Below are positions 25,802 to 26,203 of a DNA stretch of 56,731 nt, piece after piece (within the stretch, counting starts at the first letter, position 1; each line of letters starts with the position of its first letter). A program made the translations under genes and the position numbers. Origin of the DNA: an uncultured Candidatus Saccharibacteria bacterium (GTDB lineage: Bacteria > Patescibacteriota > Minisyncoccia > Minisyncoccales > GWA2-38-27); the NCBI GenBank assembly GCA_964387825.1, contig CAYLWZ010000004.1, forward strand, positions 1-56,731, written 5' to 3'. A model generated the notes under the pieces. The model was not told the origin of the DNA and did no database searches. It saw nothing but the letters and a program-made list of their open reading frames with translations.

Positions 25802-26203
25802 GATGAAAGCTTCGACAGAAAACTTAACTGAAAGAACGCAAGTCGAGCATTATAGTCAACTCGTTCGCCCTGTTAAATGCCGCTTTGCGGCAATTTCGCC
25901 TTCGGCGAAATTATTTAACAGAGTAAAACTGCCTATAAAAAAATAAGTGCTAACTTATTTGAAAAACCTGCATTAGCTTTTGCTTAATGCCGCTCTTTCC
26001 GCCGATTCTCGATAGGTAGAAAAGAACGTCATTTATCGAGATAGATGGTTGTTTTCGCCCAAGAACAACTGTTGAATAAACAGGGCTATGGATATTAAGA
26101 TTTTGCCTATTTCTCGCTTAATATCTAAAAATAAAAAATAGGACAAGCTTGTAGACCTATTTCAGTCAACTTTCTGGACAAGGGTCCAATCCCTTCATCT
26201 CCA
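25799..26203 (+). ncRNA. ssrA: tmRNA; tag reading frame ANLFEKPALAFA* at 25949-25987
   Basis: 5' GGGGATG pairs with 3' CATCTCC (G3-U wobble), GCTTCGAC after the 5' end, PK1 stems CGAG/CTCG and TATAG/CTATA, resume context AATAAGT-GCT, hydrophobic tag tail, next to smpB. Confidence 0.92.

Follow-up and report, generated by a model that had tools for sequence, protein, structure and literature searches.

The tmRNA gene of an uncultured Candidatus Saccharibacteria bacterium raises the question of how a structural RNA can acquire, and apparently live with, a self-contained extra fold. The gene lies in a 56,731-nt stretch (positions 1 to 56,731 of GenBank contig CAYLWZ010000004.1, assembly GCA_964387825.1), called the window here. 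A first-pass annotation of the sequence had described a three-way-junction repeat within loop 3 of pseudoknot 1 (PK1), the tmRNA pseudoknot tied closest to resuming translation, and had proposed that a dispersed repeat system also colonises structural RNA at tolerant loops. We asked what the insert is, how it came to lie there and whether the tmRNA could still work with it.

We aligned the window tmRNA to the covariance model RF00023 with cmscan. The alignment covered model positions 1–374 with a score of 100.8 bits against a gathering score of 47, and it placed 67 nt between CUCGU and CCUAUA, where the model has 5. This location is loop 3 of PK1, which joins the 3′ strand of stem P3 (CUCG) to the 3′ strand of stem P4 (CUAUA) (Table 1). 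PK1 lies directly upstream of the resume codon, and the expansion is confined to loop 3. Both PK1 stems, CGAG/CTCG and TATAG/CTATA, can be read intact in the sequence, as had been claimed, and both covary among about 30 relatives with the same H-type arrangement, with compensatory stem changes that include CGAG/CTCG, CCAG/CTGG, TCAG/CTGA, CTAG/CTAG and AGAG/CTCT.

The 52-nt sequence given in the first-pass annotation was exact in letters and coordinates: CTGTTAAAT (25870–25878), a hairpin GCCGC/TTT/GCGGC (25879–25891), a second hairpin AATTTCGCC/TTC/GGCGAAATT (25892–25912) and ATTTAACAG (25913–25921). This core is predicted to fold into a three-way junction with zero unpaired junction bases at −24.0 kcal/mol, compared with −9.2 ± 2.7 kcal/mol for shuffles of the 52-mer (z −5.45, 0 of 200 as good), and the junction is also predicted within 111 nt of context. 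All 23 base pairs of the core are perfect (stems of 9, 5 and 9 pairs). The 52 nt are the core rather than the full extent of the element, which comparison with other copies sets at 56 nt, two bases further on each side; its outermost stem has decayed in the window copy, with a C2-A55 mismatch and 10 of the 11 terminal base pairs paired. The junction is bordered by a 5′ single-stranded linker, UUCG, and a 3′ one, UAAAACUGC. In the minimum-energy fold of the full-length tmRNA, obtained with a program without pseudoknot modelling, the element arms pair with 26066–26084 and replace the outer stem, so the local three-way junction is not guaranteed. The native tmRNA stretch at those positions, CTGTTGAATAAACAGGGC, is similar to both element arms, by chance or as a possible misfolding trap.

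Table 1. Coordinates of the features discussed (window positions, unless a contig of the genome, G000, is named).
Feature	Position	Strand	Detail
tmRNA (ssrA) gene	25799..26206	+	408 nt; RF00023 cmscan, E 3e-38, full model 1-374
PK1 5′ part	25844..25863	+	P3 5′ strand CGAG 25844-25847; P4 5′ strand TATAG 25851-25855; P3 3′ strand CTCG 25860-25863
Left flank TTCG	25864..25867	+	family consensus flank TT[C/T]A
Three-stem mobile element, 56 nt	25868..25923	+	outer stem CCCTGTTAAAT (25868-25878) with ATTTAACAGAG (25913-25923); hairpin 1 25879-25891; hairpin 2 25892-25912
Right flank TAAA	25924..25927	+	family consensus flank T[A/G]AA
PK1 stem P4 3′ strand CTATA	25933..25937	+	sequence, model alignment, relatives
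Tag reading frame, GCT resume codon to TAA	25949..25987	+	encodes ANLFEKPALAFA*; sequence and model coding region
smpB, protein partner of tmRNA, intact	24998..25459	+	Pfam PF01668 SmpB, E 1.4e-45, profile 3-142 of 143
Stand-alone GIY-YIG gene, 82 aa	25471-25719		Pfam E 1.2e-14
Solitary terminus CCCTGTTAAAT	17004..17014	-	without partner arm; remnant or chance match
Sister-subfamily copy, 59 nt	22676..22734		ends TCCCGTTAGAGAT/ATTTCTAACGGGA; in frame in 217-aa minus-strand ORF
Sister-subfamily copy, 65 nt, composite	30527..30591		TTCA/TTCA target duplication at flanks
In-frame superfamily copies	G000 C7:24092-24141; C28:169-230; C2:30370-30431; C1:16720-16778; C14:957-1015; window 22676-22734		
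Second-form copies in genome	C5:39856; C14:3935; C14:4063; C28:169; C2:30370; C7:24092		

The insert is absent from the tmRNAs of relatives. The two same-genus tmRNAs (genomes G002 and G003) read CTCGTTAAACTG, that is CTCG[T/C]TAAACTG, at the spot where the window has 60 extra bases, and two more distant genomes with an almost identical PK1 (G022 and G049) read the same, so that alignment to relatives' ssrA genes gives an empty site in four genomes. The net gain of 60 nt can be written as CTCG TTAA ACTG to CTCG TTCG[56]TAAA ACTG. A short loop, with the resume motif at nt 60–88, was found in 62 of 63 other tmRNAs inspected; among the relatives' tmRNAs the motif lies at nt 60–88 in 44 of 45, the exception being genome G006 (nt 121), and direct reading places it at nt 144 in the window.

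These comparisons bear on two other possible origins of the extended loop, a lineage-specific expansion native to tmRNA and a chimera created by assembly. Patescibacteria tmRNAs do vary widely in length (310–535 nt among the matches listed), as a native expansion would allow. In 18 unusually long tmRNAs from other families of the class (398–535 nt), however, the resume motif lies at nt 79–87, so their added length sits elsewhere; the class-wide length survey, over 401 genomes, comprised the best 150 tmRNAs by score, a range in which low-scoring and possibly insert-bearing tmRNAs may be hidden. As for a chimera, contigs with zero differences across the insert were found in four separate salt-marsh metagenome runs; these four independent assemblies make it neither an assembly artefact nor a rare variant. 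With at least 120 relatives of the insert dispersed in unrelated contexts (see below), the empty sites, the four runs and the resume position at nt 79–87 refute both readings, to which we assign a negligible probability. A long loop that is general in these tmRNAs and unrelated to any dispersed repeat is thus contradicted both by the two congeners and by 62 of the 63 others.

The insert is instead a near-consensus copy of a dispersed family, as the first-pass annotation had supposed, with copies in at least 120 other places. A pattern scan of one genome per species recovered these three-stem copies mostly from Patescibacteria (Nealson-, Staskawicz-, Falkow-, Doudna-, Nomura-, Sungii- and Saccharibacteria, among others); the other hosts, by MAG label, were Omnitrophota, WOR-3, Gammaproteobacteria, Bacteroidota/Bacteroidales, Bdellovibrionales, Cloacimonadota and Gemmatimonadota. 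Among the matches listed, the modal length is 56 nt and nearly all copies are predicted three-way junctions, with the consensus CCCTGTTAAAT GCCGC-ttt-GCGGC AATTTCGCC-gaa-GGCGAAATT ATTTAACAGGG. The window insert is identical at 51–53 of 56 positions to copies from distant Patescibacteria lineages (L049, L052, L101 and L107) and differs from the consensus of aligned copies at two loop bases of hairpin 2 and in the 3′ arm, where one G is changed to A. Other contigs from these salt-marsh metagenomes match 25868–25921/27 alone, at about 87% identity, and then continue into unrelated flanks.

The three-stem structure is under selection, with both hairpins covarying. An alignment of 37 copies that are exactly 56 nt long showed pairing in 94.3% of cells and compensatory change at 11 pairs (0 of 500 shuffles as good). 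These 11 included every one of the five pairs in hairpin 1 and five of the nine in hairpin 2, and shifting the pairing partners along the alignment halved the pairing. The 11-bp termini were invariant in these copies, an invariance partly imposed by the search pattern. Target duplication is absent in the three-stem form: identical flanking 4-mers occur in 2 of the 120 listed copies, with several offsets and lengths examined. The flanks are themselves conserved, as T-T-C/T-A on the left and T-A/G-A-A on the right (left positions at about 80% in a flank logo of the 120 listed copies); the commonest pair is TTCA/TAAA together with its reverse complement TTTA/TGAA, and the tmRNA copy has TTCG/TAAA. 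A search of Rfam with the element gave nothing above noise (best matches at E 0.4–5, far under gathering scores), ruling out a hammerhead or another Rfam family as its identity, and no description of the element was found in the literature searched. Matching ends 300–4000 nt apart, the mark of an autonomous element, were found neither in this genome nor at the 120 listed loci. The family is apparently undescribed, and it is very widespread, tiny and structured, in ultra-small bacteria.

The three-stem family is one of two forms of a superfamily with terminal inverted repeats CCC[C/T]GTTA[A/GA]A.., found in Patescibacteria and a few other phyla: the three-stem form has no duplication and is flanked by TTYA/TRAA, and a sister form, mostly of 59 nt, has 4-bp T-N-N-A duplications. 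When the 680-kb genome was searched with the whole insert, the tmRNA copy alone matched; the in-genome relatives were recognised through termini and architecture, not through whole-insert similarity. Half-sites of the type CC[CT][CT]GTTA[AG]A number 71 in the genome against about 10 expected, and about 40 paired superfamily elements are present, most of them 59 nt long with ends CCCCGTTAGAGAT/ATCTCTAACGGGG. The CCCGTTAGA elements invoked by the first-pass annotation proved abundant, and the likeness it drew between the insert's termini and a site near 17 kb of the window is a real 11-mer match, although a solitary one that may be a remnant or chance. The second in-genome form has ends CCC[C/T]GTTAAAT/ATTTAAC.GGG around one or two hairpins, and the tmRNA insert belongs to it; the copies at C5:39856, C14:3935, C14:4063 and C28:169 are full-length three-stem elements.

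Transposition can be read directly from the sister subfamily. Perfect 4-bp direct flanks occur at 14 of its 41 copies in the genome (expected 0.2, P ~3e-22) and are varied in sequence (TAAA, TTTA, TTGA, TTCA, TGAA and CAAG); these repeats are target-site duplications and show that the subfamily has transposed. Sister-subfamily copies occur in 17 of 61 related genomes, with up to 30 per genome. Copies with perfect ends CCCCGTTAGAG../..CTCTAACGGGG are distributed very unevenly, numbering 30 in G031, 12 in G017, 7 in G020 and 0 in the same-genus G002 and G003; their length is fixed at 58–59 nt, whereas the sequence between the ends varies greatly and is rich in purines on one strand.

Protein genes also carry superfamily copies in frame. 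One encodes a ClpC/ClpB-like ATPase that matches a solved ClpC at E 1e-66 and contains the element within a variable loop; further copies lie in a topoisomerase-I-like ORF, in an ORF similar in sequence to ribosomal protein S9, and in ORFs of 517, 497 and 217 aa. Most in-frame copies translate as [Y/H/N]PV[K/R]...[F/S]NGV with small C-terminal variations, and their length plus 4 is usually divisible by 3. The translation over the copy in the 217-aa ORF is NKKI[YPVRNFEHGGKKQEENISNGI]DLIF.

Members of the superfamily occupy the same PK1 loop in three further tmRNAs. In G006, which belongs to the same family as the window's organism and another genus, the loop reads CTGG TAAA (CCCCGCTAGAAATT AAA AATTTCTAAACGGGG) TAAA CTTTCAG against CTGG-TAAAC-TTTC in relatives; the insert is a 32-nt hairpin mini-element of the sister type with a TAAA duplication. 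In G245, from another family of the class and the sole match in a pattern search of 401 genomes for further loop inserts, a 489-nt tmRNA has at the same spot a 102-nt sister-type element whose inverted ends measure 19 bp and which is flanked by duplicated TAAA. The third case, metagenome contig L187, shares the argS-smpB-tmRNA-infC order with the window. Its tmRNA (57.5 bits) has 66 nt inserted at a model position identical to that of the window, comprising a three-stem element (−27.3 kcal/mol, z −7.0) with the two hairpins in reverse order relative to the window and flanks TTCA/TAAA. The opposite orientation, the different PK1 stems and a different tag (ANLFQKPALVYA) indicate that the L187 insertion is independent of that in the window.

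The four PK1-loop inserts thus measure 32, 56, 56 reversed and 102 nt, and the loop sequence, T[T/A]AAAC, contains the TAAA/TTAA preferred by the family. PK1 loop 3 is a recurrent and apparently tolerated landing site, used in at least three lineages besides that of the window, and the proposal that the repeat colonises structural RNA at a tolerant loop gains support from these independent insertions. Searches with nhmmer and ARAGORN around the 120 listed three-stem loci in species-representative genomes found no tmRNA gene, so insertion into a tmRNA is a rare event.

Two observations on these loci stand apart from the PK1 inserts. The G006 tmRNA (L034, G006:C19:8983-9392, minus strand) has a second extra segment in the pseudoknot-3 region, a GC-rich hairpin of about 22 nt (CCCTGCCGTCGGTAGGCAGGCG) that is absent from five aligned relatives, so one tmRNA carries two different hairpin elements. 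In L187, the SmpB ORF (1826-2383, minus strand) begins MSNGVKVL..., which contains SNGV, the peptide encoded by the terminal repeat of the family; the annotated smpB start may thus come from an element end.

Our favoured explanation, which we consider highly probable, is that a 56-nt non-autonomous palindromic element inserted into the PK1 loop of ssrA and is carried as a passenger of a still-working tmRNA. The element would have transposed into a T/A-rich loop, ancestrally TTAAAC, after the window's species split from its sequenced congeners, with the net gain of 60 nt. The element presumably moved by transposition; that no long element with matching ends was found in this genome or at the 120 listed loci, and that the window copy (flanks TTCG/TAAA) has no target duplication, count against the explanation. 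The PK1 loop would offer the preferred TAAA/TTAA target and may be among the few tmRNA sites where added RNA survives; target preference and tolerance together would explain the repeated arrival and survival of insertions at this loop. As a compact three-way junction folded on itself, the element would probably not hinder the folding of the PK1 stems, the resume codon or the rest of the tmRNA, and the single-stranded linker on each side should allow the pseudoknot to form with the junction as a side branch. The mature RNA probably retains the insert, as a protrusion of neutral or slightly harmful effect. Translocation draws PK1 between the ribosomal subunits, with PK1 resting on H38 (PMC8363625); a 56-nt branch might be a steric burden on that passage.

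Could the insertion instead have inactivated the gene, leaving a decaying pseudogene and a cell that rescues its ribosomes by other means? The score of 100.8 bits is below the 115 and 164 bits of the congeners, and in E. coli PK1 is the most mutation-sensitive tmRNA pseudoknot; both count for a pseudogene. Against it, the features outside the loop are intact: the acceptor stem GGGGAUG pairs with CAUCUCC and includes the G3-U pair, the T arm and the remaining pseudoknots align to the RF00023 model (CCA is not encoded), and the tag frame comprises 12 open codons and a stop, with a hydrophobic ending and a frame shared by relatives. The gene is the sole tmRNA in the 97.6%-complete genome (one match at E<=1e-18), smpB is intact, the allele is fixed in four samples, and otherwise intact tmRNAs with inserts in the same loop have been kept in three other lineages. 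We therefore consider a pseudogene very unlikely. From the sole copy, the intact features, the intact smpB and the three lineages keeping such inserts, we infer that the window tmRNA probably continues to function in trans-translation.

At the other extreme, the three-way junction may have been co-opted, for example as a protein-binding platform or a PK1 stabiliser, and now be a functional part of the tmRNA. The 23 of 23 perfect core pairs, despite the decayed outermost stem (C2-A55), and the recurrence of insertions in the loop speak for this. The recurrent inserts, however, differ in size, shape and orientation, which suggests no common function; perfect pairing in a sequence so near the family consensus is explained by youth, and the congeners work without any insert. 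Co-option seems to us a most improbable account of the locus.

A further alternative keeps the tmRNA working by taking the element out of the transcript. It could be excised and the ends religated, as in an intron, or the long outer stem could be cut and the ends left unjoined, in which case the acceptor stem, helix 2 and PK1 would hold the two pieces of the tmRNA together. The window's tmRNA was found in none of the RNA runs searched, and the RNA for the G245 case came solely from diverged relatives without the element. For L187, groundwater metatranscriptome contigs join position 1691 to 1751 and skip exactly 59 nt (CA, the 56-nt element and T); the joint reads CTCA-TTAAAC-TTCTAGC, an ancestral-type loop with the empty site CTCATTAAACTTC. 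One such contig has zero differences from L187 over 116 nt; it stops at tmRNA nucleotide 1, followed by CCC and an Illumina adapter, and so derives from 5′-processed RNA. The gene is filled in three DNA assemblies, L187, L190 (424/424 identical to L187) and L191 (423/424). The exact skip and the uniformly filled DNA point to removal, as does the required passage of PK1 between the subunits, which would favour loss of the insert.

Other features of the same RNA data point the other way. Elsewhere in the tmRNA, over 1530–1565, that run has a single contig, of similar depth, which departs from the L187 sequence by A>T at 1535 and two other changes, and the 1691/1751 joint is shared by two clearly different strains at 96% identity, as expected of uninterrupted genes. 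The element has neither a ribozyme core nor an Rfam match, and the copies within protein genes keep the reading frame, pointing to retention in RNA. On these sequence comparisons the most likely source of the empty-form RNA is not L187 itself but a sister strain whose gene is uninterrupted, and on that reading the joint fixes the exact insertion boundaries for L187. We regard removal from the transcript as unlikely. The specific form in which the three-stem element is a miniature intron, cut at the foot of the outer stem and with its ends exactly rejoined in host RNAs, we regard as decidedly unlikely; if true, it would explain the presence of the element in tmRNA PK1 and in essential genes. 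In a separate observation, one contig from metatranscriptome run X28 links the two ends of a related tmRNA, the 3′ end region (near L187:1403) and the 5′ end (1821), in a circle- or tandem-like manner; the assembly graph of a small abundant RNA could have produced this link as an artefact, or ligation could have occurred during library preparation.

The closest precedent is provided by the Rickettsia palindromic elements (RPEs), whose insertions include some in RNA genes, those of tmRNA and of RNase P RNA (Ogata et al., 2002, as cited in PMC2229807). R. bellii has 526 RPEs, 53 in protein genes and one in the tmRNA gene (PMC1458961), and RPEs lie in frame in many protein genes (PMC2229807, PMC1458961, PMC10969869). 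Like the window element, RPEs are small, palindromic, gene-less and multi-copy in a reduced genome, and like its family they occur in frame in essential protein genes and in a tmRNA gene, where tolerance is presumed to come from self-folding. RPEs are about 100–150 nt long and confined to one genus, Rickettsia, whereas the window element has 56 nt and a family spread over many Patescibacteria lineages and some other phyla; the family further differs in its three-way junction, its covarying hairpins and its recurrent use of one tmRNA loop in four lineages. Given the different size and host phylum, we class the element as working like an RPE and regard membership in the RPE families as unlikely.

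The bacterial MITEs (Correia/NEMIS, ERIC, RUP and BOX, among others; reviewed in PMC10969869) share terminal inverted repeats, a non-coding interior and dispersed copies with the window element. Their target-site duplication is matched by the sister subfamily alone (14/41), the three-stem subfamily having TTYA/TRAA flanks instead; most MITEs are also much larger, and the interior of the window element is variable but structurally conserved. The element therefore fits the definition of a MITE only partly, having inverted ends and many copies and, in the three-stem subfamily, no target duplication; a search of this genome and the 120 listed loci turned up no parent insertion sequence sharing its ends.

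Known interruptions of tmRNA genes comprise T-loop group I introns, permuted two-piece genes and 3′-end genomic islands, and inserts of the present sort in the PK1 loop are not mentioned in the 2025 tmRNA database paper (PMC11915505). All show foreign or rearranged DNA to be compatible with function, but splicing or processing removes the known interruptions, which are located in the T-loop or at the 3′ end, whereas the window insert lies in PK1 and has no ribozyme features. A group I or other self-splicing intron was rejected on size (56 nt against more than about 200 nt), fully paired junctions and the lack of an Rfam core. The intervening sequences of 23S and 16S rRNA resemble the insert in being extra helical RNA in a tolerant loop of an essential RNA, patchy among relatives. 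They are usually excised by RNase III without religation, and the 9–11 bp outer stem of the window element is short for RNase III. Integron attC sites have an inverse core RYYYAAC at the 5′ end and a core GTTRRRY at the 3′ end. This order is reversed here (GTTAGAG 5′, CTCTAAC 3′), and an attC site ('59-base element') was rejected; the 59-nt length is coincidental.

That a tmRNA gene can contain a palindromic mobile element is already known; the PK1 insert is a new example from a new phylum and a new element family, and it adds the use of one particular PK1 loop as a recurrent landing site. The element family invades structural RNA genes besides protein genes. Four natural tmRNAs with 32–102 extra nt in one PK1 loop amount to a ready-made experiment on the tolerance of that loop, and they reveal where on the ribosome there is room for a projecting branch.

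Such inserts lower covariance-model scores, so a tmRNA may be reported absent: the L187 tmRNA was missed by cmscan at default Rfam gathering filters and was found with relaxed filters. ARAGORN did not detect the window tmRNA either with the insert or after in-silico deletion of the 60 nt; the miss must have another cause, and the insert was ruled out. Detection of tmRNA is fragile in this group, with ARAGORN blind to the window gene and relaxed filters needed for L187.

The gene order in the window is argS (minus strand), smpB, the small GIY-YIG gene, a GC-rich palindrome, tmRNA and infC. The palindrome, CGCCCGCA...TGCGGGCG at 25745–25801, comes just after the GIY-YIG gene, abuts the tmRNA and shares its first Gs; its repeat family is not that of the tmRNA insert.
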